This document shows positions 20,648-60,333 of a DNA stretch of 64,000 nucleotides, piece by piece. Each line of letters begins with the position of its first letter. Positions within the stretch are counted from its first letter, which is position 1. The position numbers and the translations under genes were made by a program. Location: NCBI GenBank assembly GCA_964479045.1, contig CAYZJI010000002.1, positions 51,660 to 115,659 of the forward strand, in the 5' to 3' direction. The notes under the pieces are model-generated. The model was given only the letters and a program-made list of their open reading frames with translations, was not told where the DNA came from and did not search any database. Source of the stretch: an uncultured Enterobacteriaceae bacterium (GTDB taxonomy: Bacteria > Pseudomonadota > Gammaproteobacteria > Eutrophobiales > Eutrophobiaceae).

Positions 20648-21916
20648 ATGGCGCCTTCCCAGACGTACAAACAGATTTCCATTCTGGCTTCCAGTACCTT
20701 TGCCTTCACCATTTGTTTTGCGGTATGGGTCATGTTCTCGATCATCGGCATTCCCATACGCGACACTCTCAATCTCAATGAAACCCAGTTCGGGTTACTG
20801 GCGGCAACACCGATCCTGACCGGCTCGCTGATCCGCCTGCCTATCGGTATCTGGACTGATCGACATGGTGGACGGATCGTATTTTTTCTGTTGATGCTCT
20901 CAACCATTGTTCCGATCTGGTTGATTTCCCGTGCCACGGAGTACTGGCACTTTCTGGTGCTGGGTCTGTTTGTCGGAGTCGCGGGCGGGGCATTTTCCGT
21001 CGGCATCGCCTATGTGGCACGCTGGTTCAGCCGTCCCCGCCAGGGTTTTGCCATGGGTATTTTCGGCGCCGGTAATGCCGGTGCGGCACTGACCAAATTT
21101 GTCGCGCCGACAATCGTGGTGGTATATGGCTGGCAGATGGTGCCTCGAGTGTATGCCATTGCCATGCTGGTCACTGCAATTCTGTTCTGGATGTTCACCT
21201 ATACCGACAAGAGTCATCAGGTTGGTCAGTCAGTCACACTGCGCCAGCAACTCAGCGCCCTGAAGGATCCGAACGTGTGGAAACTCTGCCAGTTTTATTC
21301 GATCGTATTTGGTGGTTATGTGGCCCTGTCTCTGTGGTTGACCAAGTACTACATCAATGAATACGGCTTCGGCATCCAGACGGCGGCATTGATCGCATCC
21401 ATCTTCGTTTTGCCTTCCGGCGTGATTCGCGCTGCCGGTGGCTGGATTTCTGATCGCTATGGCGCGCATCCGGTGACGTGGTGGGTGCTGCTGGTGTCAT
21501 GGGTGTGCCTGTTCTTTATGTCCTATCCGCAGACCGAAATGACCATCCAGACGATCAATGGGCCACTGACCTTCAGCATCGGCTTGAATGCGTGGATGTT
21601 CACGGCTTTACTTTTTGTTGTCGGCATTGCCTGGGGCTTCGGCAAGGCTTCGGTGTTCAAATACATCTCGGATGCGTACCCGGACAATATCGGAGTGATT
21701 TCCGGCATCGTCGGTCTGGCCGGTGGCATGGGTGGTTTCCTGCTACCCATCATGTTTGGCGCACTGGTCGACTTCACCGGTGTACGCTCCAGTATTTTCA
21801 TGTTGCTCTGGGGCGTGACGCTGGTGTCATTGATCTGGATGTACTGGACGGAAATTGTGCCTGCGCGCAGCGGACGCGGGACCGGTGCGGCGCCATTGGC
21901 CGCACAGCACGCCTGA
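20648..21916 (+). CDS. narK1: Nitrate/nitrite transporter, MFS NarK family
   Basis: 12-TM MFS with the G-x3-D-R-x-G-x-R motif (GIWTDRHGGR). First gene of narK1K2GHJI. AAGAGG Shine-Dalgarno. Confidence 0.8.
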   Translation: MAPSQTYKQISILASSTFAFTICFAVWVMFSIIGIPIRDTLNLNETQFGLLAATPILTGSLIRLPIGIWTDRHGGRIVFFLLMLSTIVPIWLISRATEYWHFLVLGLFVGVAGGAFSVGIAYVARWFSRPRQGFAMGIFGAGNAGAALTKFVAPTIVVVYGWQMVPRVYAIAMLVTAILFWMFTYTDKSHQVGQSVTLRQQLSALKDPNVWKLCQFYSIVFGGYVALSLWLTKYYINEYGFGIQTAALIASIFVLPSGVIRAAGGWISDRYGAHPVTWWVLLVSWVCLFFMSYPQTEMTIQTINGPLTFSIGLNAWMFTALLFVVGIAWGFGKASVFKYISDAYPDNIGVISGIVGLAGGMGGFLLPIMFGALVDFTGVRSSIFMLLWGVTLVSLIWMYWTEIVPARSGRGTGAAPLAAQHA

Positions 21917-21947
21917 TCATTACTAAAGTTCAAGAAGGAGCTGAAAG

Positions 21948-23366
21948 ATGAGCGTACAAATGGTTTCAGACAAACCCAAACTGGGAAGCGTGTTACGCAT
22001 CTGGACGCCGGAAGACAAGGCGTTCTGGGAACATCAGGGCAAGGCCATCGCCAACCTCAATCTCTGGATCTCCGTTCCCTGCCTGTTTCTTGCCTTTGCC
22101 GTATGGCAGTTGTGGAGTGTGGTTGCGGTCAATCTGAATACACTCGGTTTCACCTTCACACCCAATCAGCTGTTCTGGCTGGCCGCCGCACCGGCACTTT
22201 CCGGTGCAACCTTGCGGATTTTCTATTCATTCATGGTGCCCATCTTCGGCGGGCGTGAATGGACAGCCATCTCGACAGCCTCACTGCTGATACCCACGAT
22301 TGGTATCGGTATTGCGATACAGGATCTGTCGACCAGTTACTCCACATTTCTGATATTGGCATTGTTGTGTGGCTTCGGCGGTGGAAATTTTTCATCCTCC
22401 ATGGCCAACATCAATTTCTTTTTCCCCAAGGAACGCAAGGGATCGGCACTCGGTGTGAATGCCGGGCTTGGCAACCTTGGTGTATCTTCCGTACAGTTTC
22501 TGGCACCGCTGGTGATTGCGGCGGGTGTGTATGGTCCACTGGCTGGACCACCACAAACTATCATCAATCAAGCCGGACAGACTGTGAACATCTGGGCACA
22601 GAATGCCGCCTTTGTGTGGGTGCCTTTCATTATTATTGCCAGTCTGGCGGCATGGATAGGCATGAATGATATTGCCGATGCCAAAGCATCGTTCCGTGAT
22701 CAGGCGGTGATCTTCAAACGCAAGCACAACTGGATTATGTGCTGGCTCTATCTCGGGACCTTCGGTTCGTTCATCGGCTACTCCGCAGGTTTCCCTTTAC
22801 TCATCAAGTCACAATTTCCCGGCGTGAACGCATTGCAGTATGCGTGGATGGGCCCGCTGATTGGCGCAGTGATACGTCCATTTGGCGGGTGGTTGGCGGA
22901 CAAGCTGGGCGGAGCCATTGTGACCTTCTGGAATTTTATTGTGATGGCACTGGCAGTAGGTGGGGTGCTGTATTTCCTGCCGTCCGGTCCTTCGGGCGGA
23001 AGTTTTGCCGGATTCTTCCTGTGTTTTATGGTGTTGTTTCTCACGACGGGCATCGGCAATGGCTCAACCTTCCGCATGATCCCGGTGATCTTCATGACCG
23101 ACAGGCAACGTGCTGCTGCAGGCAAGGGCAAGGAAGCAGCAGAACAGGCGGTGAAAGAAGCCAACAAGGAAGCCGCCGCAGTCCTTGGTTTTTCGGGGGC
23201 CATTGGCGCCTACGGCGGATTTTTTATTCCAAAAAGTTATGGCACTTCGATCAGCTTGATGGGCGGCCCTGAAGGTGCGCTGTATTTATTCATTGTGTTT
23301 TATCTAAGCTGCATTTGCATTACATGGTGGTATTACGCTCGCAGGAATGCCGAAATGCCGTGTTAA
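21948..23366 (+). CDS. narK2: Nitrate/nitrite antiporter, MFS NarK family
   Basis: 472-aa MFS immediately upstream of narG. Confidence 0.8.
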   Translation: MSVQMVSDKPKLGSVLRIWTPEDKAFWEHQGKAIANLNLWISVPCLFLAFAVWQLWSVVAVNLNTLGFTFTPNQLFWLAAAPALSGATLRIFYSFMVPIFGGREWTAISTASLLIPTIGIGIAIQDLSTSYSTFLILALLCGFGGGNFSSSMANINFFFPKERKGSALGVNAGLGNLGVSSVQFLAPLVIAAGVYGPLAGPPQTIINQAGQTVNIWAQNAAFVWVPFIIIASLAAWIGMNDIADAKASFRDQAVIFKRKHNWIMCWLYLGTFGSFIGYSAGFPLLIKSQFPGVNALQYAWMGPLIGAVIRPFGGWLADKLGGAIVTFWNFIVMALAVGGVLYFLPSGPSGGSFAGFFLCFMVLFLTTGIGNGSTFRMIPVIFMTDRQRAAAGKGKEAAEQAVKEANKEAAAVLGFSGAIGAYGGFFIPKSYGTSISLMGGPEGALYLFIVFYLSCICITWWYYARRNAEMPC

Positions 23367-23379
23367 TGAGGTTACGATC

Positions 23380-26300
23380 ATGAGCCACTTTCTCGACAGG
23401 TTGAAGTTCTTCACACAGGAACGGGAATCGTTTGCCGAGGGACACGGCATGGTCACTCACGAAGACCGGTCCTGGGAAGAGGGCTACCGCAAACGCTGGC
23501 AGCATGACAAGATTGTTCGATCCACGCATGGCGTAAACTGCACCGGTTCATGCAGCTGGAAGATTTATGTCAAGGGCGGAATCGTGACTTGGGAAACACA
23601 ACAGACTGATTATCCCCGCACGCGTCCCGATATGCCCAATCACGAACCGCGGGGTTGTTCGCGAGGCGCATCTTATAGCTGGTATCTCTACAGTGCCAAC
23701 CGCGTGAAATATCCAATGGTGCGCGGACGTCTGGTCCGTGCGTGGCGTGAAGCACGCAAAACCATGAATCCGGTTGACGCCTGGACTTTGATTGTTGAAG
23801 ACGACAAAAAACGGAGAGCGTATCAGACCACCCGCGGCATGGGTGGATTCATCCGTTCCAACTGGGAAGAGGTCAATGAGATCATCGCAGCCGCGAATGT
23901 ATATACCATAAAAAAATACGGCCCGGATCGCATCATCGGGTTCTCACCGATTCCGGCCATGTCGATGGTGTCCTATGCTGCGGGCAGCCGTTATTTATCA
24001 TTGATTGGCGGTGTGTGCATGAGTTTCTATGACTGGTATTGCGATCTTCCGCCTTCCAGTCCGCAGGTGTGGGGCGAACAAACTGATGTGCCGGAATCTG
24101 CAGACTGGTACAACTCCACCTTCATCATGGCATGGGGTTCGAATGTGCCGCAAACGCGCACACCTGATGCACACTTCTTCACCGAGGTTCGTTACAAAGG
24201 CGCAAAAACCGTTGCTGTGACGCCTGATTATTCCGAAGTCGCCAAATTGTGTGATCTGTGGTTGCACCCGAAACAGGGCACGGATGCGGCGATGGCCATG
24301 GCGATGGGGCATGTGATTCTCAGGGAATTTCATCTGGAAAAACCCTCGTCCTATTTCAGTGACTATGTACGCCGTTACAGTGACATGCCGATGCTGGTGA
24401 AACTGGTGAAACGTGGTGATCGCTATGTGCCGGATCGTTTCATCCGTGCCAGTGATTTTTCCGATCAACTGTCACAATCCAACAAACCGGACTGGAAGAC
24501 TGTCGGAATTGATGAAACTACCGGTAATGTAATCGTGCCGAATGGTTCGATAGGGTTCCGCTGGGGCCAGACTGACGGCAAGTGGAACCTGGAATCCAGA
24601 AATGCAAACTCGGGCGCCGAAACTAAACTTGCATTGTCATTGATCGACCGGCGAGATGCAGTGATAACAGTGGCCTTCCCGTATTTTGGCGGGGTGGAGA
24701 ATGAACGCTTCCAGAATAACGATCAGGGTGCGAACGTTATGTTGCGTAATGTGCCGGTCAAAAAGCTCATTCTGGCAGAGGGTGAAACCTGTGTTGCGAC
24801 AGTATTTGATTTGCTGGTGGCAAATTATGGTATTGATCGCGGCCTGGGTGGCGGCAATGTTGCTAAATCCTATGATCAGGACGTTCCCTATACGCCAAAG
24901 TGGCAGGAAAAAATCACTGGCGTGAAGGCAGCTGATGTGATCGCTGTGGCCCGCCAGTTTGCGGACAACGCCGACAAGACTGAAGGTAAATCCATGGTCA
25001 TCATCGGTGCAGCCATGAACCACTGGTATCACAGTGACATGAATTATCGCGGCATCATCAATATGTTGATTATGTGCGGCTGTGTGGGCAAATCCGGCGG
25101 TGGCTGGGCGCATTATGTCGGCCAGGAAAAACTCCGGCCGCAAACCGGCTGGACCGCGCTGGCATTTGCACTGGATTGGCACCGTCCGCCCCGGCAGATG
25201 AACTCTACGTCATTCTTTTATGCGCACACGGATCAATGGCGTTATGAAAAACTGTCTGTCAGGGAGATTCTCTCTCCGCTGGCTGACCCCAAGGAATTTA
25301 CCGGCAGTCTGATTGATTTCAATGTGCGGGCGGAGCGCATGGGCTGGTTGCCCAGTGCGCCCCAGTTGCAGATCAACCCGTTGCAGGTATGCCGTGATGC
25401 GGCTGCCGCAGGAATTGATCCCAAAGAGTATGCGGTGAAGGCCTTGAAGGCAGGCAGGTTACACATGTCTTGTGAAGACCCGGACCATCCGGACAACTTC
25501 CCGCGTAATATGTTTGTGTGGCGCTCCAACCTTTTGGGTTCGAGTGGCAAGGGCCATGAATATTTTCTGAAACACCTGCTGGGGACGAGTCATGGGGTAC
25601 AGGGCAAGGACCTTGGCAGTCTGGGCGGTGAAAAACCGGAAGAGGTGAAATGGCATGAAGAGGCGCCCATCGGCAAACTGGATTTGCTGGTGACACTGGA
25701 TTTCCGCATGTCGACGACTTGTCTCTATTCCGACATCGTGTTGCCGACCGCGACCTGGTATGAAAAAAATGATCTCAATACCTCGGACATGCATCCGTTT
25801 ATTCACCCGTTATCAGCGGCCGTCGATCCGGTATGGGAATCACGCAGTGACTGGGAAATCTACAAGGGCATTGCGAAAAAGTTTTCCGAAGTGGCAAGAG
25901 GCCATCTGGGTATGGAAAAAGAGCTGGTACTGACACCGGTCATGCACGACACACCGGCCGAGCTTGCACAATCCACCTCGGTGCAGCAGTGGAAGCGAGG
26001 TGAATGTGATCTGGTCCCCGGTCAGACTGCACCCCAGGTGACGGTGATCGAACGCGACTATCCCAACACGTACAAAAAATTTACGGCATTGGGACCCTTG
26101 ATGTCCAAAGTGGGTAATGGCGGCAAGGGCATCGCGTGGAATACCGAGCATGAAGTCGAAGCACTGCGTACACTGAACTATCCGGTGACGGAACCCGGGA
26201 TCACTCAAGGCATGCCGCGCATCGAGTCCGATATCGATGCCTGTGAAGTCGTGTTGATGCTGGCGCCGGAGACCAACGGCGAAGTTGCCGTCAAGGCCTG

Positions 26301-27129
26301 GGAAGCATTATCAAAAATTACCGGACGTGAACACAAGCACCTCGCATTGGCAAAAGAGGATGAAAAAATCCGTTTCCGCGACATACAGGCACAACCGAGA
26401 AAAATCATTTCGAGTCCCACCTGGAGCGGGATCGAGTCTGAACATGTCAGTTACAACTCCGGCTATACCAATGTGCATGAACTGATCCCGTGGCGTACCC
26501 TGACCGGCCGCCAGCAGTTTTACCAGGATCACAAATGGATGCTCGGGTTTGGTGAAGGGCTATGTATTTACAAACCACCGGTGGATCTGAAAACCATTCA
26601 TCCCATGGAAGGCATCAAGCCGAACGGCAATCGGGAAGTGGTGCTGAATTTCATCACACCGCATCAGAAATGGGGCATCCATTCCACCTATACGGACAAT
26701 CTCCTGATGCTGACCCTGTCACGTGGCGGGCCGATTGTCTGGTTGTCCGAAGTGGATGCACAACGCGCAGGCATTGAGGACAACGACTGGATTGAACTGT
26801 TTAATGTAAACGGGGCGATTACGGCACGTGCCGTGGTCTCACAACGTGTGAATGAAGGCCTGTGCCTGATGTATCACGCGCAGGAAAAAATTGTGAATGT
26901 GCCCGGCTCCGAACTTACCGGGTTGCGTGGTGGCATTCATAATTCCGTCACTCGCACTGTCGTCAAACCCACGCACATGATCGGCGGTTATGCGCAACTG
27001 AGTTACGGATTTAACTATTATGGCACCATCGGTACCAACCGCGATGAGTTTGTCATCGTCCGGAAAATGAAAACGGTCGACTGGCTGGATCAACCGGCTG
27101 AATCGGCCGCACAAGGAGAACCGCGATGA
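23380..27129 (+). CDS. narG: Respiratory nitrate reductase alpha subunit
   Basis: Start moved to MSHFLDRLKFFTQERESFAEGHG, which matches the NarG N-terminus (MSKFLDRFRYF...). It has a GAGG Shine-Dalgarno. Contains the HGVNCTGSCSW Fe-S motif. Confidence 0.95.
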   Translation: MSHFLDRLKFFTQERESFAEGHGMVTHEDRSWEEGYRKRWQHDKIVRSTHGVNCTGSCSWKIYVKGGIVTWETQQTDYPRTRPDMPNHEPRGCSRGASYSWYLYSANRVKYPMVRGRLVRAWREARKTMNPVDAWTLIVEDDKKRRAYQTTRGMGGFIRSNWEEVNEIIAAANVYTIKKYGPDRIIGFSPIPAMSMVSYAAGSRYLSLIGGVCMSFYDWYCDLPPSSPQVWGEQTDVPESADWYNSTFIMAWGSNVPQTRTPDAHFFTEVRYKGAKTVAVTPDYSEVAKLCDLWLHPKQGTDAAMAMAMGHVILREFHLEKPSSYFSDYVRRYSDMPMLVKLVKRGDRYVPDRFIRASDFSDQLSQSNKPDWKTVGIDETTGNVIVPNGSIGFRWGQTDGKWNLESRNANSGAETKLALSLIDRRDAVITVAFPYFGGVENERFQNNDQGANVMLRNVPVKKLILAEGETCVATVFDLLVANYGIDRGLGGGNVAKSYDQDVPYTPKWQEKITGVKAADVIAVARQFADNADKTEGKSMVIIGAAMNHWYHSDMNYRGIINMLIMCGCVGKSGGGWAHYVGQEKLRPQTGWTALAFALDWHRPPRQMNSTSFFYAHTDQWRYEKLSVREILSPLADPKEFTGSLIDFNVRAERMGWLPSAPQLQINPLQVCRDAAAAGIDPKEYAVKALKAGRLHMSCEDPDHPDNFPRNMFVWRSNLLGSSGKGHEYFLKHLLGTSHGVQGKDLGSLGGEKPEEVKWHEEAPIGKLDLLVTLDFRMSTTCLYSDIVLPTATWYEKNDLNTSDMHPFIHPLSAAVDPVWESRSDWEIYKGIAKKFSEVARGHLGMEKELVLTPVMHDTPAELAQSTSVQQWKRGECDLVPGQTAPQVTVIERDYPNTYKKFTALGPLMSKVGNGGKGIAWNTEHEVEALRTLNYPVTEPGITQGMPRIESDIDACEVVLMLAPETNGEVAVKAWEALSKITGREHKHLALAKEDEKIRFRDIQAQPRKIISSPTWSGIESEHVSYNSGYTNVHELIPWRTLTGRQQFYQDHKWMLGFGEGLCIYKPPVDLKTIHPMEGIKPNGNREVVLNFITPHQKWGIHSTYTDNLLMLTLSRGGPIVWLSEVDAQRAGIEDNDWIELFNVNGAITARAVVSQRVNEGLCLMYHAQEKIVNVPGSELTGLRGGIHNSVTRTVVKPTHMIGGYAQLSYGFNYYGTIGTNRDEFVIVRKMKTVDWLDQPAESAAQGEPR

Positions 27130-28649
27130 AAATCCGTGCCCAGATTGGAATGGTCCTGAATCTCGACAAATGTATCGGGTGTCATACCTGTTCCGTGACA
27201 TGTAAAAACGTATGGACGTCACGCGAAGGTATGGAGTACGCATGGTTCAATAATGTTGAAACCAAGCCGGGCATCGGTTATCCGAAGGAGTGGGAAAACC
27301 AGGACAAATGGAATGGCGGCTGGGTGCGCAAACAAAATGGAAAAATCGAGCCGAAGCAGGGCGGCAAGCTGGCTGTCCTCATGAAGATCTTTGCCAACCC
27401 GAATCTGCCACAGATTGATGATTATTACGAACCTTTCACATTTGACTATCAGCACCTGCATACGGCGCCAGAAATGAAAGCGGCACCGGTGGCCCGGCCA
27501 CGTTCGCTGATTTCCGGAGAACGCATGGAAAAAATCGAATGGGGCCCGAACTGGGAAGAAATTCTCGGCGGTGAATTTTCCAAACGCTCAAAAGATGCAA
27601 ATTTCGAGGATGTGCAGAAGGACATCTACGGACAGTTTGAAAATACCTTCATGATGTATCTGCCACGTTTATGTGAGCATTGTCTGAATCCCACCTGTGT
27701 GGCTTCCTGTCCGTCCGGGTCAATCTATAAACGCGAAGAAGACGGTATTGTGTTGATCGATCAGGACAAGTGCCGCGGCTGGCGCATGTGTGTGTCCGGC
27801 TGTCCCTACAAGAAAATCTATTACAACTGGTCGACCGGCAAGGCGGAAAAATGCATATTCTGTTATCCGCGCATTGAAGCCGGGCAACCCACAGTGTGTT
27901 CTGAAACCTGTGTGGGACGCATCCGCTATCTTGGCGTATTGCTTTATGACGCCGATCGCATCGAACAGGCTGCAAGTGTTGCCAATGACAAGGATTTGTA
28001 CAAGGCGCAACTGGGTGTGTTTCTCAATCCGGACAATCCGGTGGTGATTGAACAGGCGCGCAAGGACGGAGTGCCGGAATCATGGCTGACGGCAGCAAAA
28101 GCATCCCCGGTTTACAAAATGGTGATGGAGTGGAAAGTGGCACTGCCACTGCATCCGGAATACCGCACCTTGCCGATGGTCTGGTATGTGCCGCCCTTGT
28201 CACCTATCACAGCGGCCTCGAACTCCGGTCAGGTCAGTGCCTTCGGTCAATTACCGGACGTGCGCAGTCTGCGTATACCGCTCAAGTATCTCGCCAATCT
28301 GTTGACCGCCGGTGATGAAGAACCGGTGGCTGCAGCACTGGAGCGCATGCTGGCCATGCGCGCCTATATGCGTGATCGGCATGTTGAAAAGAAAGAAAAC
28401 AGCGCAGTGCTCGAACAGGTTGGCATGAGTGTGCAGGAAATCGAAGAAATGTATCGTTATATGGCGATTGCCAATTATGAGGATCGTTTTGTTATCCCGA
28501 CAGCCCACCGTGAATATGCTGAGAATGCCTTTGATCTGCGCGGCGGCTGCGGGTTCTCGTTTGGTAATGGCTGTTCCGATGGCATCTCCAGCCCCGGACT
28601 GTTCGGCGGCAAAAAGAAAAAAGTAATTCCCATCAAGGCGGCAAGCTGA
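27126..28649 (+). CDS. narH: Respiratory nitrate reductase beta subunit (Fe-S)
   Basis: MKIRAQIGMVLNLDKCIGCHTCSVTCKNVWTSREG is near-identical to the E. coli NarH N-terminus. ATGA overlap with narG. Confidence 0.95.
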   Translation: MKIRAQIGMVLNLDKCIGCHTCSVTCKNVWTSREGMEYAWFNNVETKPGIGYPKEWENQDKWNGGWVRKQNGKIEPKQGGKLAVLMKIFANPNLPQIDDYYEPFTFDYQHLHTAPEMKAAPVARPRSLISGERMEKIEWGPNWEEILGGEFSKRSKDANFEDVQKDIYGQFENTFMMYLPRLCEHCLNPTCVASCPSGSIYKREEDGIVLIDQDKCRGWRMCVSGCPYKKIYYNWSTGKAEKCIFCYPRIEAGQPTVCSETCVGRIRYLGVLLYDADRIEQAASVANDKDLYKAQLGVFLNPDNPVVIEQARKDGVPESWLTAAKASPVYKMVMEWKVALPLHPEYRTLPMVWYVPPLSPITAASNSGQVSAFGQLPDVRSLRIPLKYLANLLTAGDEEPVAAALERMLAMRAYMRDRHVEKKENSAVLEQVGMSVQEIEEMYRYMAIANYEDRFVIPTAHREYAENAFDLRGGCGFSFGNGCSDGISSPGLFGGKKKKVIPIKAAS

Positions 28650-28654
28650 GGAAG

Positions 28655-29335
28655 ATGCAAATGAAAATATTAAAAGGACTGGGTGCGCTTCTCACCTATC
28701 CAGAAGAGGATTTGATTACCGCATTGCCGGACCTTGCAGAATTGATTGCCAGTGAAAAATTATTGTCACAGACCGATAAACAGGCATTGAACGGCTTGCT
28801 CTCACAACTGCAACATACGGACCTGCTGGAACTGCAGGAGCACTATGTAGAGTTGTTTGATCGTGGCCGCGCAACTTCATTGAACCTGTTCGAACACGTG
28901 CATGGCGAATCCCGTGATCGCGGTCAGGCCATGGTGGATTTGAACCGCATTTATGCCCAGGCCGGCCTTACACTGTCCAGTAATGAATTACCGGATTATC
29001 TGCCGGCTGTCCTCGAATACCTGTCCCTGCGCCCACGGGCCGAAGTCCTGGACATGCTGGGTGATTGTGCCCATATACTGCGCGCCCTCGGAGAACGTCT
29101 GCGTGATCGGGATAGCCGCTATAGCGCTATATTCTCTGCGTTATTGACAGTTACCGGTGAGGAAGGCCTGGGTGCAAAGGATACAACTGCAACAGATCAT
29201 GAAAAAAGTCTGGATGAGGAATGGGCCGATGAACCGGTGATCTTCGGACCGGGTGCTGCACAGGGCTGCGGCAAACAGGCGCAGACATCCGTGATTAAAT
29301 TCATGCCCGGAAATATTTCGCGAGGTGAGTCATGA
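28655..29335 (+). CDS. narJ: Nitrate reductase molybdenum-cofactor assembly chaperone (delta subunit)
   Basis: 226 aa between narH and narI. NarJ-like sequence. Confidence 0.85.
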   Translation: MQMKILKGLGALLTYPEEDLITALPDLAELIASEKLLSQTDKQALNGLLSQLQHTDLLELQEHYVELFDRGRATSLNLFEHVHGESRDRGQAMVDLNRIYAQAGLTLSSNELPDYLPAVLEYLSLRPRAEVLDMLGDCAHILRALGERLRDRDSRYSAIFSALLTVTGEEGLGAKDTTATDHEKSLDEEWADEPVIFGPGAAQGCGKQAQTSVIKFMPGNISRGES

Positions 29336-30027
29336 ATATAGAAAACTATATCAATGTATTTCTGTTCGGACTCTATCCCTATGTTTGTCTGGCCGTGTTC
29401 CTGTTTGGCAGTCTCTTTCGCTTTGACCGTGAACAATACAGTTGGAAGAGTGATTCTTCACAATTATTGCGTCATGGCCAGTTGCGACTCGGTTCCAATC
29501 TGTTTCATCTGGGTATTTTGCTTATTTTCTTTGGTCATCTGGTGGGCTTGCTCACACCGATGGCAGTCTGGCATACCCTGGGTGTAACGCCAGAGGCCAA
29601 ACAGATTCTGGCGATAGTGGCTGGTGGTATTGCCGGGGTGGCCTGTCTGATTGGATTATTGCTGCTGATACATCGTCGTCTGGCCGATGCACGCATCCGC
29701 GCCACTTCCAAAGGAATGGACATTTTAATTTTGTTCCTGTTGCTGGCCCAGTTATTACTGGGATTATTCAGCATTACCCTGTCTCTGCAACATCTGGATG
29801 GCGGTGAAATGATGAAATTCATGATGTGGGCACAACATATCGTGACATTTCGTGGTGATGCCGCGAGCTTTGTGGCAGATGTACACATCATTTTCAAGCT
29901 GCATCTGCTGCTGGGCATGACGATTTTCCTGATATTCCCGTTTACCCGTCTGGTCCATGTGTGGAGCGGCTTTGCGACACTCGTTTATCTGTTCCGGCCC
30001 TATCAGGTCGTTCGCAGCAAGCATTAA
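29332..30027 (+). CDS. narI: Respiratory nitrate reductase gamma subunit (di-heme cytochrome b)
   Basis: MNIENYINVFLFGLYPYVCLAVFLFGSLFRFDREQYSWKSDSSQLL matches the NarI N-terminus. ATGA overlap with narJ. Confidence 0.9.
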   Translation: MNIENYINVFLFGLYPYVCLAVFLFGSLFRFDREQYSWKSDSSQLLRHGQLRLGSNLFHLGILLIFFGHLVGLLTPMAVWHTLGVTPEAKQILAIVAGGIAGVACLIGLLLLIHRRLADARIRATSKGMDILILFLLLAQLLLGLFSITLSLQHLDGGEMMKFMMWAQHIVTFRGDAASFVADVHIIFKLHLLLGMTIFLIFPFTRLVHVWSGFATLVYLFRPYQVVRSKH

Positions 30028-30038
30028 TTCAGGTTTAA

Positions 30039-30797
30039 ATGATGAAAGCCATCTATGTTAACGGAACAGCCATATCAGCGACCGCGCTGGATCAGGCGGC
30101 ATTGCAATTGGGGACAGAGGCAACACCCGAAGCAGTTGCGCGTGCCGCAGTTGCGCGTGAACTTTTGCACCAGCGTGCTCGTGAAAAAGGTTTGCTGAAC
30201 TTCGGAGGGGATGAAGGTGCCGCAATCGAACGGTTGCTGGATCTGGAAGTCAAAATCCCGGGACGGCCAACCGAAGCCGAGTGTCTGCGCTTTTATGAGG
30301 CCCATCCGGAATCATTCCAGAGCGGGGAACTGGTCTATGCCCGGCATATTTTGTTTGCAGTAACGCCGGGTGCGCCGCTGGAAGCGATCCGCCACAAGGC
30401 AGAACTGACGTTGCATGAATTGCTGCATCATCCGGATCGTTTTGCACAATTTGCCCATGAATATTCCAACTGCCCGTCCGGCGCGCAGCAGGGTAACCTG
30501 GGACAGCTTGCCCGTGGCGAGACAGTCCCCGAATTTGAATCAGCACTGTTTGATGAAAAGCACAACGGGATATTGCCGCGACTGGTCAGGACCCGTTACG
30601 GTTTTCATATTGTCGCGATCGAGCAGCGTATTGCGGGCAGTCAGATACCGTTTTCAGCTGTGCGCGATAAAATAGAAACGTATCTTATGGGCCGGGTGCA
30701 GGAGAAGGCATTATCACAATATGTAAAAGTGCTGGCAGGTCAGGCCGATATTCGCGGTGTGGAAATTGAAGGTGCGGCAACACCACTGGTCCAGTAG
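30039..30797 (+). CDS. PpiC-type (parvulin) peptidyl-prolyl cis-trans isomerase, nar-operon associated
   Basis: Parvulin domain (YARHILF...TRYGFHIV). Same position as the PpiC-type gene that follows narI in Pseudomonas. Confidence 0.7.
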   Translation: MMKAIYVNGTAISATALDQAALQLGTEATPEAVARAAVARELLHQRAREKGLLNFGGDEGAAIERLLDLEVKIPGRPTEAECLRFYEAHPESFQSGELVYARHILFAVTPGAPLEAIRHKAELTLHELLHHPDRFAQFAHEYSNCPSGAQQGNLGQLARGETVPEFESALFDEKHNGILPRLVRTRYGFHIVAIEQRIAGSQIPFSAVRDKIETYLMGRVQEKALSQYVKVLAGQADIRGVEIEGAATPLVQ

Positions 30798-30805
30798 TTC
30801 TTTTT

Positions 30806-31993
30806 TTAACCGGGTTTACCGTCTGCGCGTGGTGCGATCAATATCGGTGTGTAAACCACCAGAAACAACACAAACGCCGCTATCCAGAGTGTGCCGGAAA
30901 CCGCAATGCTGTTCAGATAGTCTTCAGCGAAGACGGGACTGACCACGCGCACAATAGCGGAAAGTGTAATCAGGAGATAGGCCGCCACGGTCAGCGGAGC
31001 TGCAATCAAGGGACGCCCGGTATGACCTAATGCCGCGCGTGTCATCACCGCCAGTATCATTCCGGCAAATGCCCCGGTGGTAAATGCATGCAGCCAGGCT
31101 GATGCGTACAATGAGCCAGTCAACAGAAACAGTCCTTTAAGAAAGAACCCGATGATCACCCATGCATAGGCCAGATGCAGGATCCAGACAATGGCTTCAC
31201 CAAGGCCGCGCCATGTTTTCCAGCGAGAGAGCCGTACGGCATGAATCACCGCCGCGATGATGGCCAGCCACCCTGCTGTTATTGAATGGGGCCATATCAG
31301 ATCAACAATCAGTACCAGCACCATGCTGAGTATCGCAGCACGATCCAGCGCCGGGAACGGCATGATGGCGAAGGTATCATCTGTGCGCCGTACGGCACTC
31401 AGCGTAAAAGCAGGGACTATACGTCCACCAATAATAGTGATGATCAACAGGACGATATTGATTCCGAACATCAATCCATAACCTGCAAAACCTGGATTGT
31501 TACGCAGAATTGCAATGTGAAAGATCAGGTTCGCTACAAACAGCACGACCAGGAATAACAGGAACACCAGATTGCGCGATTTGCCACGCAACAAGGAAGG
31601 GGCAAGCATAAAACCCAATACAGGGAAAAATGCGAGATCAATCATGGTTATGATGACGGGATGAACATACGGGTAAAAAATAAATACCAGCCGACCCGCC
31701 AGCCATACTGACACGAGAATGATTAATGGTAATCCTGAAAAGCCCCGCTCGCCTGTCCAGCTGGGCACTGCCGTCAGCAGAAATCCTGCAATCGCTGCAG
31801 CCACAAATCCGAACAGCATTTCATGGCCATGCCACAGGTAGGCTGGCAAGGTAATGCTGAACCACGCACCCCCCAACAATGTATACAACCAGATCAACAG
31901 GGTGATGATCGCGTATACACCCGCAAGCAGAAAAAACGGCCGGAAGCCGTAATTAAACAATGCAAAACCGGATGATGAATTATTCATTTGCAT
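30806..31993 (-). CDS. nnrS: NnrS-family heme-copper membrane protein (NO-stress related)
   Basis: 395 aa, polytopic, with the NnrS-type N-terminus (FRPFFLLAGVYAI...WHGHEMLFGFVAAAIAGFLLTA). Confidence 0.75.
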   Translation of the reverse strand: MQMNNSSSGFALFNYGFRPFFLLAGVYAIITLLIWLYTLLGGAWFSITLPAYLWHGHEMLFGFVAAAIAGFLLTAVPSWTGERGFSGLPLIILVSVWLAGRLVFIFYPYVHPVIITMIDLAFFPVLGFMLAPSLLRGKSRNLVFLLFLVVLFVANLIFHIAILRNNPGFAGYGLMFGINIVLLIITIIGGRIVPAFTLSAVRRTDDTFAIMPFPALDRAAILSMVLVLIVDLIWPHSITAGWLAIIAAVIHAVRLSRWKTWRGLGEAIVWILHLAYAWVIIGFFLKGLFLLTGSLYASAWLHAFTTGAFAGMILAVMTRAALGHTGRPLIAAPLTVAAYLLITLSAIVRVVSPVFAEDYLNSIAVSGTLWIAAFVLFLVVYTPILIAPRADGKPG

Positions 31994-37817: not shown

Positions 37818-37870
37818 TTACTGCAAATATACAAATAGAGAGAGTTTATATGCAGGTTATAATTTTTTTG

Positions 37871-37912
37871 GTGAAGCGTGAAGCGTGAAGCGTGAAGCGT
37901 GAAGCGTGAAGC
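37871..37912 (+). repeat. Tandem heptanucleotide repeat (GTGAAGC)x6 in the 5' leader of the slp-like gene
   Basis: Read directly: gtgaagc x6, followed by gtgctATG. A TATAAT -10 hexamer lies at 37858-37863. The slp ATG at 37918 follows 5 nt after the last unit. Confidence 0.9.
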
Positions 37913-37917
37913 GTGCT

Positions 37918-55045: not shown

Positions 55046-55138
55046 AAACACGTGATTAATTCAGGATGTATCGTTGCAAGATCTTAATTTTGAACACGCA
55101 TAAACCTCAGGTATGGTGAGTGTTGTCATATCAGGCAC

Positions 55139-55806
55139 GTGCCTGCCATCGACGCTGATGGAGTGAGCAGGTCTGCCATGGCGGGCATTTGTATGCGCCC
55201 GTATCTTCATAATAACAAGAAATGCTGGCCAGTTAACGAGACCAGATCCCCTGTCTTGCCACAGGAGCATGATGACCTGCTGATGAAAATCAGGCGGGCC
55301 TTGCTTGTCTTGAGTGAATGCAGTCAGTCCATGATACGGATTCATGATGAACTGGATCTCTTGCAATCCATTTGCGCCCATATTGCCGCCGACGGCCGTT
55401 ATTCAATGGCCTAGGCCGATGAACCTGCCGGTCATCATTGCGCGGGCAAGGCTATGAGGCTGTCATCAGTGATCTGGCCAGCGCGATACGCTTCATGTAT
55501 GAAGTGAAAGGATTTGGTTGCAGTTTTGCGCTGGATGACTTTGGCAGCGGCCTGCCTTCACTCAATTATCTCAAGAACCTGCCGGTGGACTATCTGAAAA
55601 TCGACGGTGCATTTGTGCGGGACATTGTTCATGACCGGATCGATTTCACGCTAGTGAAGTCCATCAGTGAAATCGGGCAGGTGATGGGTAAACTGACTAT
55701 CGCAGAATTTGTGGAAAATCAGGATACGCTGAACAGCCTGATCCGTATCGGCATCAATTTCGGCCAGGGCTATCATATTGGCAAACCAGTGCCGATACGT
55801 ATCTGA
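55139..55806 (+). pseudogene. Decayed EAL-domain gene remnant (N-terminal stub + C-terminal third of an EAL domain, central ~100 aa deleted)
   Basis: The ORF at 55438-55806 encodes ...GCSFALDDFGSGLPSLNYLKNLPVDYLKIDGAFVRD...IAEFVENQ...GINFGQGYHIGKP, which is about 65% identical to the last 95 aa of the convergent 1273-aa protein. The upstream ORF ends ...MIRIHDELDLLQ, matching the start of that protein's EAL domain (AVRIHEALDEKQ). The EAL/ExxE catalytic core is missing. Confidence 0.6.
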
Positions 55807-55808
55807 TA

Positions 55809-58800
55809 TCAATCCTGACCGGACAAATTGATCATTCTGGGTTTGCCTATGGCGTACCCTTGTACAAAATCAACACCAATTGTCTGAAGTTTTTCCAGAA
55901 TGATTCTGTTTTCCACAAATTCTGCGATAGTCTGTTTGCCCATTAATTTACCAATCTGGTTGATGGAACGCACCATCGCATAACTTGTTTTATCAGTAGC
56001 GAGATCGCGTACAAATGAACCGTCGATTTTCAGATAGTCTACAGGTAATGTCCGCAGGTATTTGAACGAGGAAAAACCGCTGCCAAAGTCATCCAGCGCG
56101 AAACGGCAGCCTTTGGCCTTGATGGCGCGTATGAAATTGGTGGCCCGACCGAGATTCTGCACAGCCTGGGTTTCCGTAATTTCAAAGCAGATTTTGTGTG
56201 CCGGGACAATACCGGTCTGGAGATGTGACAGGACCAGTTGCAAAAAGGCATCATCCCCGAGCGAATGTCCTGAGAGATTGATCGAACACAGGCCGATGCG
56301 GCGCAAACGGCGTGGATTTTCCGCCATCCAGCCGAGTGCGTGTTGCAGTACCCATTTGTCCAGTTCGATGCTGAGGTTATAACGTTCTGCAGCCGGCATG
56401 AATGCCCCGGGCATCACCATTTTGCCGCTTTTGTCCTGCATACGCAGCAGGAATTCATAGTGATGGCCCAGATCAGTACGGGGTCTGGCGGGGCGTATAG
56501 ATTGTATGCAGAGACGTAGTTGTTTTTCATCCAGCGCTTCATGGATTCTCACTGCCCATTGCATTTCTCCACGCCGTGCTTCCAGATTTTCATCATGCAA
56601 ACGGTAAATATGCACCCGGTTGCGTCCGGCATCCTTGGCCGCATAACAGGCCGCTTCCGCCATGCTCAATATATTCGAGAGCTCACCGCTGTTTTCATTG
56701 ATGGTAACAACGCCGATGCTGGCGCTGGGGGTATAGCGTCTGTCTTCCCAGTTGAAACGTAATTCGTAAATTTCATTGCATAATGCTTCAGCAACGCGTT
56801 CAGCCTGGCTTATAGAGCAGTACTCCATCAGCAAGGCAAATTTGTCACCACCGAGTCGTGCCAATATGTCACTCTTGCGGATGCGGGCCTGTAACAGTCC
56901 GGCGATTTGCCGCAATAATTCGTCGCCGGCCAAGTGACCGCAGGCGTCATTGATGATTTTGAACTGATCAAGGTCGATATGACACAGCGCATGTTCACTT
57001 TTTTCAACACGGCAGTTATTCAACAATAATGCCAGCCGCCGTTCCAGTTCCCGCCGGTTGGGTAGTCCGGTCAGGGCGTCATGTCTCTCCTGGAAACTGA
57101 GCCGTTCTGACAGCCGGCGGGTCTCCGTTATATTTTCCATTTGCAGGAGATAATATTCAGGCCGGCCTTTACTGTCTGTGATCAGCGTGGTGTTTTGCGT
57201 AACATGAATGATTTCACCGTTCTGATGTATGTAAGTCTGTTCCTCAGCGTGATTGGGATGCTCATTGTTTAATTGTCTGAGCTGTATGAATTGGGCCTCC
57301 AGTATTTCCGGCGACATGATATGTTCCAGTCCATGCTGGAACAATTCAGCTTCCCGGTATCCAATCATATCGGAAAACGCCGGATTGAAATGTGCAATCC
57401 TGAATGCAGGATCCAGCAGCATCATGCCGACGGGTGAATGTTCAAATATATTACGGAAACGCTCCTCACTTTGCCGTAATGCCCGTGTCGCTTTTTCACG
57501 TTGTATACGTGCGCGGAGTGCGCGTATGCCATGACTCAGGTTATCACCAAGATGTTTGAGCAGTTTTGCTTCTTCCTTATCAAAGGAATTTTTGCCGGTT
57601 GAATAAATGGCCAGTGTTCCGATGATGTCAGAATCTGTTTGTATCGGCATGACCATAATGGTTCTGTACCCGCGTTCCAGCGCATCATCACGCCACAGAT
57701 CAAACCCGGGTTCAGTGGCGATGTCATGCACGATGATGGTTTGTCCGCCGCGAATTGCCTTGCCGACCGGCCCCTGGCCATGGGAATCATCAGCCCAGGT
57801 GATCTTCTTGTCCAGATAACCGCTTTCAAGACCGGACCAGGTCACTGGCGAAACGGTGCGATGCTCATCACGTTGCTTGTAACCGATCCAGGCAAAGCAA
57901 TACTCGCCCTCTTTGACAATAATCCTGCAGATATCGTGCAGTAACTGGTTTTCAGTATTGGCCTGGGCAATGATGGCATTGCAATGACTCTGCATTTTCA
58001 GTGCGCGTGTGTTTTGAACACGCGAGGTGACATCATTGCTGACCATATACACGCCGGTAATCGTGCCATGGCTGTCAATATGAGGTGTCAGTGTGATTTC
58101 ATAGATATGCTTTTTGTCATCACGTTGCATGAAATGCTCATATTTGACGACCTTGCCGGTCAGTGCCGCCTTGAGATGTGGTTTGATTTTCTGGTATTCG
58201 CGTGGATCGGCGACCTTGTTGATGGGTTTACCCAAAACATCATTTCTTGAGTAACCAAAAGTATTCTCAAAGTTGGAATTTACATACTGGTATTTAAGGT
58301 CCTGATCGATGTAACTGATAATCACCGGTACGGAATCGCTGAGCAGGCGCATATGTGCCTGGCCTTCTCGCAAGGCCAGTTCGATACGTTTGCGCTCGGA
58401 AATATCATGGGTGACACTCAGGTGAGCAATGATCCTTCCATCGCGATCCCGTAATGGACTGGAGTGAGTTTGCAGCCAGCGTTGTTTCCCCTTCAGGCCG
58501 GTAATTTCAAATTCCAGCTTTCCCGTATACCCGTTGAGGACCTTGTGGTGTAATTCCATGAAAGTGTTCTGGTAGGGCAAGTTAACAAGTTTGCTGACAT
58601 GCATGCCGCGGACCTGTTCCAGTGACTCAGCTTCCAGCATGGCCAGCCCGGCCGGATTCATATCAAGGATAGTGCCATCTTCAGCCACCAGTTTTACACA
58701 CTCAGGCTCGGTATCGATGATGGTACGCAGATCCCGTTCCTTGTCAGCCAGACGCTCTGCAGTCTGCTTGTCGTCTGTCACATCAATAAACAAACCATTC

Positions 58801-59630
58801 CAGACAATGTTTCCTTCTGCGTCCGGAGGTTCGGGTATTGAATAACCCCGCAGCCAGCGTATGCCACCATCAGGTTCATGTACGCGGAATTCATAATGCC
58901 AGGGAGATAATTCATGTGCAGAAACTGCAATACTGCGTGTCAGGCCCTCAATATCAGCAGCATGAACTATGGACCAGGCTTTGGAGGATTCCTGCATGAT
59001 TTCTGCTGCGCTTAACCCGAACAACCGTGCTGCACCCGCGCTCATGTAGGGGAAATCCTGTTGACCGTTCCTGCCGAGACGGTACTGGTAAACTGCACCC
59101 GGCAATGAATTAATGATGCCTGACAGTAGCTTCTGGGTCTTGTTCAGGTCCTGGTTGATTTCTTCAAGCCGCCGTTGTTCCTTGAGTTTCTGCTCGGTAA
59201 TATCGCGCATGAAACAGTAATGATCAGTGACAACATCAGTATTTCCCGAACTGCGGAATTTCACGCAGTGTTTCCAGAACATGGAACCATTTTTACGGAT
59301 ACCGCGCCCTTCATATTCACCGCGGCCGGTCCGATGCATATCGGCGATGGCCCGTTCCGCTTCACTCCAGTCATCCTCATGGGTCAAATCACGCCAGGTC
59401 AGCGTGGTAAGCTCTTCCGGTGCATAACCATAGGCGTCAAGAAAGCGCTGGTTGGTGCCAAGAAAATGTCCCTGGGTATCAATACGCGATATACACTCAA
59501 GGGCCTTCTCGAAGATGTCGTTGAGATTAAAAACCTCGCCATCTGTCTGAACAGTGTGAGTTCTGGGCACACCCGTTGTACGGTTTTTTTTATCCACGGG
59601 AGCAGGAGAATCGGTATATGGCACAGGCAA
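55809..59630 (-). CDS. Multidomain c-di-GMP signalling protein: multiple PAS, GAF, GGDEF (RLGGDKF) and EAL (EFLLR) domains
   Basis: 1273 aa. GGDEF-like motif GGDKF, EAL motifs EFLLRM...DDFGSGFSSF, and several PAS-like repeats. The start codon is uncertain: the track start at 59630 is a TTG and the first in-frame ATG is about 95 codons in. Confidence 0.8.
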   Translation of the reverse strand: MPVPYTDSPAPVDKKNRTTGVPRTHTVQTDGEVFNLNDIFEKALECISRIDTQGHFLGTNQRFLDAYGYAPEELTTLTWRDLTHEDDWSEAERAIADMHRTGRGEYEGRGIRKNGSMFWKHCVKFRSSGNTDVVTDHYCFMRDITEQKLKEQRRLEEINQDLNKTQKLLSGIINSLPGAVYQYRLGRNGQQDFPYMSAGAARLFGLSAAEIMQESSKAWSIVHAADIEGLTRSIAVSAHELSPWHYEFRVHEPDGGIRWLRGYSIPEPPDAEGNIVWNGLFIDVTDDKQTAERLADKERDLRTIIDTEPECVKLVAEDGTILDMNPAGLAMLEAESLEQVRGMHVSKLVNLPYQNTFMELHHKVLNGYTGKLEFEITGLKGKQRWLQTHSSPLRDRDGRIIAHLSVTHDISERKRIELALREGQAHMRLLSDSVPVIISYIDQDLKYQYVNSNFENTFGYSRNDVLGKPINKVADPREYQKIKPHLKAALTGKVVKYEHFMQRDDKKHIYEITLTPHIDSHGTITGVYMVSNDVTSRVQNTRALKMQSHCNAIIAQANTENQLLHDICRIIVKEGEYCFAWIGYKQRDEHRTVSPVTWSGLESGYLDKKITWADDSHGQGPVGKAIRGGQTIIVHDIATEPGFDLWRDDALERGYRTIMVMPIQTDSDIIGTLAIYSTGKNSFDKEEAKLLKHLGDNLSHGIRALRARIQREKATRALRQSEERFRNIFEHSPVGMMLLDPAFRIAHFNPAFSDMIGYREAELFQHGLEHIMSPEILEAQFIQLRQLNNEHPNHAEEQTYIHQNGEIIHVTQNTTLITDSKGRPEYYLLQMENITETRRLSERLSFQERHDALTGLPNRRELERRLALLLNNCRVEKSEHALCHIDLDQFKIINDACGHLAGDELLRQIAGLLQARIRKSDILARLGGDKFALLMEYCSISQAERVAEALCNEIYELRFNWEDRRYTPSASIGVVTINENSGELSNILSMAEAACYAAKDAGRNRVHIYRLHDENLEARRGEMQWAVRIHEALDEKQLRLCIQSIRPARPRTDLGHHYEFLLRMQDKSGKMVMPGAFMPAAERYNLSIELDKWVLQHALGWMAENPRRLRRIGLCSINLSGHSLGDDAFLQLVLSHLQTGIVPAHKICFEITETQAVQNLGRATNFIRAIKAKGCRFALDDFGSGFSSFKYLRTLPVDYLKIDGSFVRDLATDKTSYAMVRSINQIGKLMGKQTIAEFVENRIILEKLQTIGVDFVQGYAIGKPRMINLSGQD

Positions 59631-59643
59631 TACAACCCAGCGT

Positions 59644-59661
59644 CTTATTATTATTATTATT
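59644..59661. repeat. (TTA)6 trinucleotide microsatellite immediately 5' of the PAS-GGDEF-EAL gene
   Basis: Read directly: cTTATTATTATTATTATTAg. On the coding (minus) strand it reads (TAA)6, 14 nt upstream of the annotated TTG start. Confidence 0.9.
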
Positions 59662-59702
59662 AGTTATAAACTGGGTAATTAAACTTCCCATACGTTTAAG
59701 TA

Positions 59703-59724
59703 TGGTGTGAACCAGTTCACATTC
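59703..59724. promoter_or_regulatory. CRP/Vfr-type site tggTGTGAaccagtTCACAttc
   Basis: Perfect TGTGA-N6-TCACA core, about 83 bp upstream of the GGDEF-EAL gene start. Confidence 0.55.
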
Positions 59725-59741
59725 AATTAGCGCAAAGCAGC

Positions 59742-59763
59742 AAATGTGATTTACATCACATTT
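59742..59763. promoter_or_regulatory. Near-consensus 22-bp CRP/Vfr site AAATGTGATttacATCACATTT
   Basis: Matches the CRP consensus AAATGTGATCTAGATCACATTT at 18 of 22 positions, with perfect half-sites. About 122 bp upstream of the gene start and 39 bp from the first site. Confidence 0.6.
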
Positions 59764-59859
59764 CAAACTTACAAGATCAAGGGACGGGTTACAAGCTCCT
59801 AAAATCGGGCAGATGCCCGGTCTACAGGAACCGGTAAATATCAGCCGTGTATGACTTGA

Positions 59860-60333
59860 CTAGAACGGGATGTCATCATCAAAATCATCTTCCTTGCGTT
59901 TACCTGTGGTTTGCGGTCTGGCGCTGTTCTGGGAAGGTGATCTATCCTCTGTGTCAGGGGCCGTCTGGTTGCTGTAGGCAGTCCCGGAGCTACCACCACG
60001 ACCGCCCAGCATCTGCATCTCGCTGGCGATGATTTCTGTGGTGTAACGGTCCTTGCCTTCCTTGTCCTGCCACTTGTTGGTTCTGAGGCTTCCTTCCACG
60101 TAGACCTGTGAACCTTTCTTGAGGTATTCACTGGCAATCTCGGCCAGCCGCCCGAAAAATACCACGCGGTGCCATTCGGTGCGTTCCTGCTGTTCGCCGG
60201 AATCCTTGTCCTTCCAGGATTCTGAAGTAGCCAGCGAGATATTGGTAATCGCCTTGCCATTGGCGGTGTAACGCACGTCAGGGTCGTTACCGAGATTACC
60301 GATTAGAATGACTTTGTTGACTCCACGGGCCAT
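59860..60333 (-). CDS. ssb: Single-stranded DNA-binding protein
   Basis: OB-fold N-terminus ([23 protein letters not shown]), Gly-rich linker and acidic tail DDDIPF. Confidence 0.95.

Follow-up and report, generated by a model that had tools for sequence, protein, structure and literature searches.

A tandem pair of CRP/Vfr-type palindromes upstream of a predicted c-di-GMP phosphodiesterase gene

Genes of the locus and its relatives

The analysis concerns a 64-kb stretch of DNA, referred to here as the window, and within it a gap of 229 bp (59631-59859) that separates ssb from a large gene encoding PAS, GAF, GGDEF and EAL domains, both genes being on the minus strand. The gap is AT-rich, with 39% GC where the window as a whole has 51%. 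In the direction of the coding strand the successive elements are the ssb stop codon, a hairpin, two CRP-type palindromes (site 1 and site 2), a small palindrome, an AT-rich stretch, a (TAA)6 repeat and the start codons (Table 1). An earlier sequence-only reading of this DNA had taken the two sites to be placed for control of the downstream gene, and the layout agrees with this, as they are intergenic, past the terminator-like hairpin of ssb and upstream of the open reading frame.

Table 1. Positions of the features at the locus and of the tandem cores of one metagenome locus
Feature	Position	Strand	Basis or remarks
PAS x4, GAF, PAS, GGDEF (degenerate, GGDKF), EAL gene	55809-59630	minus	Pfam; 1273 codons from TTG 59630
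Decayed second PAS/GAF/GGDEF/EAL gene remnant	55280-55806	plus	converges on the intact gene
ssb	59860-60333	minus	Pfam SSB, E = 2.6e-42
Stable hairpin just 3' of the ssb stop codon	59789-59837	minus	MFE -23.9 kcal/mol, z = -4.2 vs shuffles
Site 1, distal CRP-type operator, predicted	59742-59763	none	centre 59752.5; AAATGTGATTTACATCACATTT
Site 2, proximal CRP-type operator, predicted	59703-59724	none	centre 59713.5; perfect core
Small palindrome CCATAC-TTAAAC-GTATGG	59688-59705	none	read from sequence; abuts site 2
(TTA)6, equal to (TAA)6 on the coding strand	59645-59662	minus	TRF and regex scan
Tandem cores of metagenome locus L093	contig Ga0209630_10000367, 4489-4545		cores 41 bp apart

The PAS-GGDEF-EAL output module of the target protein aligns end to end with RbdA of P. 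aeruginosa (PA0861, PDB 5xgb; E = 6e-130), which is its best relative of solved structure and to which the target protein adds four PAS domains and one GAF domain. The GG(D/E)EF motif of active diguanylate cyclases is replaced by GGDKF at residue 927; PA0861 and the nearest homologue of the target protein, P0002 (described below), both have GGDEF. The glutamate of this motif is required for cyclase catalysis. The I-site is retained as RKSD (RxxD conserved). In the EAL domain the motifs YEFLLR, INLSG, FEITE, DDFGSG, LKIDG, AEFVE and VQGY are all present and aligned with PA0861, RbdA having ELL where the target protein has EFL. With GGDKF in the one domain and complete motifs in the other, the protein is read as a putative phosphodiesterase with a regulatory pseudo-cyclase domain, and it is probably a c-di-GMP phosphodiesterase only and not a bifunctional enzyme. 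The description of the protein in the earlier reading as one of c-di-GMP turnover is therefore retained for its PAS/GAF/GGDEF/EAL content and given up for turnover in both directions, because GGDKF is degenerate and the EAL motifs are intact.

An identical protein of 1271 aa (P0001) is present at NCBI. Among 5.8 billion proteins no close orthologue of the target protein has been found, and the only match of its N-terminal 420 aa in the genome collection is an unrelated PAS protein of Thermodesulfobacteriota.

The candidate start codons include TTG 59630, GTG 59624 (the NCBI model, P0001) and GTG 59597. It had been remarked that no ATG occurs for about 95 codons, and the first in-frame ATG is indeed codon 98, which falls inside the first PAS domain. 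Shine-Dalgarno pairing is weak for all four candidate start codons (0.3 to -3.5 kcal/mol) and gives no discrimination among them. GTG 59597 is favoured as the putative start because the N-terminus of P0002, MKNKNR...ELQDIFENALECV, aligns with V12-DKKNR...NLNDIFEKALECI of the open reading frame.

The window comes from a poorly known gammaproteobacterial lineage. Nearest homologues of its MFS proteins are 69-70% identical, all the named matches being 'Gammaproteobacteria bacterium', and no relatives at 90% identity were found for EF-G, pyruvate kinase or sulfite reductase. The loci of the closest relatives (L002-L004 and L006) share with the window the gene order uvrA / MFS-ssb / MFS_3 / pyruvate kinase / DUF934 / sulfite reductase / EF-G. 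In these four loci ssb lies about 22 bp from a convergent MFS_3 gene, with no c-di-GMP gene between the two. In L005 the same spot is occupied by an MshE-type ATPase (MshEN), MshEN being known as a c-di-GMP-binding domain. In L007 it is occupied, in the opposite orientation, by the gene for P0002, a PAS/GAF/GGDEF/EAL protein of 1915 aa, which shares 49% identity with the target protein in the C-terminal half and is collinear with it at the N-terminus. The content of this spot, flanked by ssb and MFS_3, varies from one relative to another. The three occupants of the ssb - MFS_3/pyruvate kinase spot (window 55046-59859, L005 and L007) are all tied to c-di-GMP signalling.

In the remnant that converges on the intact gene, the beginning of a GAF domain (55280-55411) is fused, in another frame, with the C-terminal half of an EAL domain (55423-55806); its Pfam EAL match covers profile positions 127-236 only. 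Two inverted repeats (I1 and I2) reflect its relation to the intact gene, the remnant being 76-78% complementary to the EAL region of that gene. The two parts of the remnant are 65% and 46% identical to P0002 as compared with 55% and 36% to the intact gene, and its orientation is that of P0002. The remnant is probably a dead positional orthologue of P0002. Its orientation and identity point to the decay of an ancestral gene of P0002 type, in which case the intact gene would be a lineage-specific paralogue. The 3' end of ssb can be aligned with the ssb of the relatives, and a short stretch beside ssb resembles the 3' end of MFS_3 of L002. This resemblance suggests that the insert, operators included, may have arrived as one piece.

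No perfect site is found in any of the related loci, and the promoter region of P0002 is without matches at two or fewer mismatches. An orthologous promoter is not available among the relatives, which either do not have the gene or have the paralogue of opposite orientation lacking the sites.

Other genes of the window include a second gene of c-di-GMP type (10200-12272, plus strand) with REC, GGDEF and EAL domains, the GGDEF and EAL scores of which are weak and which is probably degenerate; no CRP-like site with two or fewer mismatches is present upstream of it. A respiratory nitrate reductase cluster extends from 20648 to 31993 and comprises two narK-like transporters, narGHJI, a PpiC-type isomerase and NnrS. 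The 90% cluster to which its NarH belongs is shared with a betaproteobacterial MAG, a hint that the nar genes may have been transferred. Methionine-salvage genes are located at 515-2384.

The two palindromes and the intergenic region

Site 1 consists of perfect inverted arms of 9 bp, AAATGTGAT-TTAC-ATCACATTT, and reads AAATGTGATGTAAATCACATTT on the coding (minus) strand (59763-59742). It agrees with the CRP consensus of E. coli, AAATGTGATCTAGATCACATTT, everywhere outside the central spacer, the two mismatches being at positions 10 and 13. The agreement thus extends to 20 of 22 positions; the high match reported earlier is upheld on recount and the figure of 18 of 22 given for it is not. The elements of the extended 22-bp consensus (AAA/TTT flanks, T9 and A14) are also present in site 1, which is the only sequence in the 64 kb with three or fewer mismatches to the 22-bp consensus, as against none in 100 shuffles.

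Site 2 has the core TGTGAACCAGTTCACA (59706-59721; coding-strand core TGTGAACTGGTTCACA, 59721-59706) with inverted arms of 7 bp. Counted from the sequence it agrees with 15 of the 22 positions of the full consensus, the left flank fitting and the right flank not. The coordinates of this core and its distance of 39 bp from site 1 had been given before and are confirmed here. The centres of the two sites lie 83.5 and 122.5 bp upstream of TTG 59630, which accords with the range of 80-125 bp upstream of the gene that had been noted. The spacer between the sites is 20 nt, and 39 bp from centre to centre corresponds to a non-integral number of helical turns.

Perfect TGTGA-N6-TCACA cores occur at 59706-59721 and 59745-59760 and nowhere else in the 64 kb, where 0.08 would be expected. 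Two or more perfect cores were obtained in none of 100 shuffles of the window, and the probability that a second site falls within 60 bp of one given site is approximately 1e-4. Both palindromes are real pairs of canonical CRP-type half-sites, and statistically they are not due to chance. Degenerate versions of the core with up to two mismatches are at the level of chance (30 found and 33 expected in the window, mostly intragenic), hence there is no sign of a wider regulon in these 64 kb. A local duplication giving rise to the two sites has been ruled out, as their likeness is confined to the core, and so has membership of a repeat family, as neither of the sites recurs in the window.

The hairpin that follows ssb has an inner stem CGGGC-atct-GCCCG, followed by AUUUU. 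It fails the T-run criterion of a simple terminator scan, which called no terminator in 59400-60000. The hairpin is likely to be the terminator of ssb and would then split the region into two transcription units. The small palindrome next to site 2 pairs as a hairpin in the computed fold. By itself it is not significant, approximately 0.5 such repeats being expected per 229 bp by estimate; a second regulator might bind there, between the operators and the -10 region, or the palindrome may be a chance occurrence. No known leader RNA or riboswitch was matched at the Rfam gathering threshold in the window, the exception being one tRNA, and a permissive Rfam scan of 59540-59880 returned just one chance-level match to a miRNA (E = 0.34).

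Promoters were sought with a simple consensus scan and with a position weight matrix (PWM) built on base frequencies of the classic E. coli compilations, the scores of which are approximate. The consensus scan of 59400-60000 yielded no promoter on the minus strand, and a sigma-70 promoter of the strong constitutive kind has not been found in the gap. The top -10 candidates of the approximate PWM scan downstream of the sites are AATAAT hexamers at 59661-59656, 59658-59653 and 59655-59650, within the repeat. They have poor -35 partners, and no good -35 element is recognised. All the PWM promoter scores are within the range of chance for a region of 230 bp. CRP-dependent promoters are known to have a site centred near -41.5, or near -61.5, -72.5, -82.5 or -92.5, from the start. 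The candidate transcription start from the AATAAT hexamers would be near 59643-59649, so that site 2 would be centred at about -64.5 to -70.5, with site 1 some 39 bp beyond it on the upstream side. The geometry of a class II promoter would be exact for a start at A 59672, with site 2 at -41.5 and site 1 at -80.5; the sole -10 element for this start is TTTAAT, which is without the conserved A at position 2. A weak core promoter of this kind fits activator dependence but is not evidence of it. A sigma-54 promoter at CTGGGTTGTATTGCC was considered and ruled out by eye because of the wrong spacing between GG and GC.

The presence of a (TTA)6 repeat upstream of the gene, pointed out in the earlier reading, is borne out, and it is the sole trinucleotide repeat of at least five units in the window by TRF and regex scan. 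The further suggestion that the repeat may supply in-frame stops does not hold: the frame of the gene across the repeat reads CTA ATA ATA ATA ATA ATA, that is, isoleucine codons after the initial CTA, so the repeat gives no stops to the gene, and the stop codon bounding the open reading frame is the TAA at 59666-59664. The repeat contains four overlapping AATAAT hexamers in registers of 3 bp, and gain or loss of a unit would therefore keep a -10 element equally far from the operators. Judging from the promoter scan, slippage of (TAA)n would change the length of the leader, and a switch-like effect is not expected. The exact two-site pattern was searched for in metagenome contigs for variants of repeat length and gave no match.

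Proposed regulation and its alternatives

Both the sites are near-perfect palindromes, as expected of the target of a dimeric helix-turn-helix protein. CRP/Vfr orthologues with TGTGA specificity are widespread in Gammaproteobacteria. It is very probable that a regulator of the CRP subfamily uses the two palindromes as operators for the downstream gene. The regulator would be a homodimer of CRP/Vfr type recognising TGTGA-N6-TCACA, and the operators would be part of the promoter region of a multi-PAS/GAF sensor gene peculiar to this lineage, with an RbdA-like output, namely a degenerate GGDEF domain and an EAL domain with complete motifs, the predicted activity being that of a c-di-GMP phosphodiesterase. 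The candidate promoter, with its -10 element within (TAA)6, is weak and therefore probably dependent on a bound activator. The proximal site, at about -64 to -71, would act in a manner like that of class I promoters, and the distal site would be situated some 39 bp further upstream. From these features we infer CRP-type binding, with activation rather than repression as the outcome. If the ligand is cAMP, high cAMP would lead to more expression of the phosphodiesterase and to lower c-di-GMP. On the whole we hold with moderate confidence, from the sequence, that the locus has an operator pair of CRP/Vfr type driving an activator-dependent phosphodiesterase gene.

The regulator might also be a CRP-like protein with a ligand other than cAMP, either of Clp type, cGMP-sensing or sensing another cyclic nucleotide. 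The palindrome TGTGA-N6-TCACA is common to several proteins of the CRP subfamily that differ in their ligands, including Clp of Xanthomonas, which speaks in favour of such a regulator, as do the nature of the target, a c-di-GMP enzyme, and the host, which belongs to a poorly known gammaproteobacterial lineage. Clp is a c-di-GMP-responsive homologue of CRP that recognises a CRP-like palindrome and acts within c-di-GMP signalling. In a system of this type c-di-GMP would release the regulator from DNA, and the phosphodiesterase gene would be under direct feedback and not under a cAMP input. Against this, nothing places the organism among Xanthomonadales, and control by cAMP-CRP or Vfr is the commoner case in Gammaproteobacteria. 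No regulator of Clp type has been found in the window or in the loci of the relatives; a phmmer search with the E. coli CRP sequence as query found no CRP-family gene of any kind in the 64-kb window or in the L001-L007 loci, a negative that counts against the CRP/Vfr reading as well but carries little weight for so small a part of the genome. A ligand other than cAMP is considered unlikely.

To a similar degree it is doubtful that the sites are relics, that is, that the cassette came by transfer or duplication along with the promoter of the donor and that the sites are now unused or no longer needed. The history of the locus offers some grounds for this, since the gene, together with the DNA upstream of it, makes up an insert of about 4.8 kb that is specific to this lineage and absent in close relatives, a decayed paralogue adjoins the insert and the database of 5.8 billion proteins has no close orthologue. 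Without selection, however, two palindromes intact at all the contacted positions would soon decay. The gene is also close to the window in GC content (49.5% and 50.7%), which gives no sign that it was acquired recently from a foreign source.

Two further proposals go beyond these: a Clp-like homologue outside Xanthomonadales could let c-di-GMP set the transcription of its own phosphodiesterase in a one-step homeostatic loop, or slippage of (TAA)n could tune the promoter between cells. We regard either as distinctly improbable. It is most improbable of all that the palindromes serve an unrelated dimeric protein, RNA hairpins in read-through transcripts of ssb or a plus-strand promoter antisense to ssb, since a double exact match to a specific and well-known operator consensus is hard to ascribe to another factor; both sites fold as hairpins if transcribed, but these are AU-rich and without a U-tract, and a plus-strand TAAAAT at 59800-59805 would put site 1 near -59.5, but no well-scoring plus-strand promoter lies near the sites and no gene lies that way.

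Tandem sites and comparable systems elsewhere

Two perfect cores separated by 21-25 bp have been identified in at least 120 metagenome contigs (L008-L127). By a rough estimate chance would give a few, and tandem perfect sites thus appear to be a recurrent natural design. Among the matches listed, core gaps of 24-25 bp are the commonest and the gap of 23 bp seen in the window is the rarest (16 as compared with 23-42 for the others). Three of the loci (L011, L023 and L057) contain at least three tandem pairs each, which suggests repeated elements.

A GGDEF/EAL gene is the neighbour at one of the 120 tandem-site loci listed, L093, which is approximately the background frequency of such genes, and therefore no general association exists among the loci listed; the wiring recurs but is not a rule. 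The layout of L093, which is not E. coli, parallels that of the window, with argG, a rho-independent terminator and two perfect cores followed by a gene for a PAS-GGDEF-EAL protein of 749 aa. This gene starts 66 bp downstream of the cores, the centres of which are 73.5 and 114.5 bp upstream of its ATG.

Regulators of CRP type at the promoters of GGDEF/EAL genes, coupling cAMP to c-di-GMP, are known from other bacteria and are predicted here for the gene of the window. As summarised in a review (PMC11139211), the promoter of gcsA, which encodes a diguanylate cyclase of P. putida, is bound by cAMP-CRP, and in V. cholerae the cyclase CdgA is under negative control by cAMP-CRP. The S. putrefaciens phosphodiesterase gene lrbR is transcribed more strongly under the action of cAMP-CRP, which binds between lrbA and lrbR at a site that the authors could not locate (PMC12415220). 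The direction predicted here, with a high level of the ligand giving low c-di-GMP, agrees with that in Shewanella and Vibrio, lrbR being a phosphodiesterase gene up-regulated by CRP. The sequence-only reading had put forward an explicit link between the two second messengers; the wiring is favoured by the sites, whereas the link is not new, being known in P. putida, V. cholerae and S. putrefaciens (PMC11139211, PMC12415220). Unlike gcsA, cdgA and lrbR, the gene of the window has two tandem sites of consensus grade, is a larger, multi-sensor target and belongs to another lineage.

The connection from cAMP to c-di-GMP through CRP being already established in Pseudomonas, Vibrio and Shewanella, no new question is opened by the present case. 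If confirmed, it would add one more cyclic-nucleotide receptor protein that directly controls a c-di-GMP-degrading enzyme, with an unusually clear operator pair, and would serve as an example of a sensor gene in a variable genomic spot that carries its own regulatory input. Because the sites are of consensus grade, CRP of E. coli could be used as a proxy on what is a clean test fragment.

The region resembles tandem-site (class III) CRP promoters in having two sites per promoter region and differs from them in the spacing of 39 bp, with its non-integral number of turns, and in the lack of a recognisable -35 element. With simple-sequence contingency loci it shares a perfect repeat of six units in the promoter or 5' leader; unlike in those loci, the repeat itself supplies the -10 hexamers, in registers of 3 bp. 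Another repeat of the window is a perfect heptanucleotide tandem repeat, (GTGAAGC) x6.4, at 37871-37915 (TRF score 90). A consensus TATAAT (37858-37863) comes before it, and the ATG (37918) of a lipoprotein-like gene (MRILSISIVFLLAGCAS) comes after it. With a unit of 7 nt and GTG codons in shifting frames, this leader repeat is a candidate for a slipped-strand switch.
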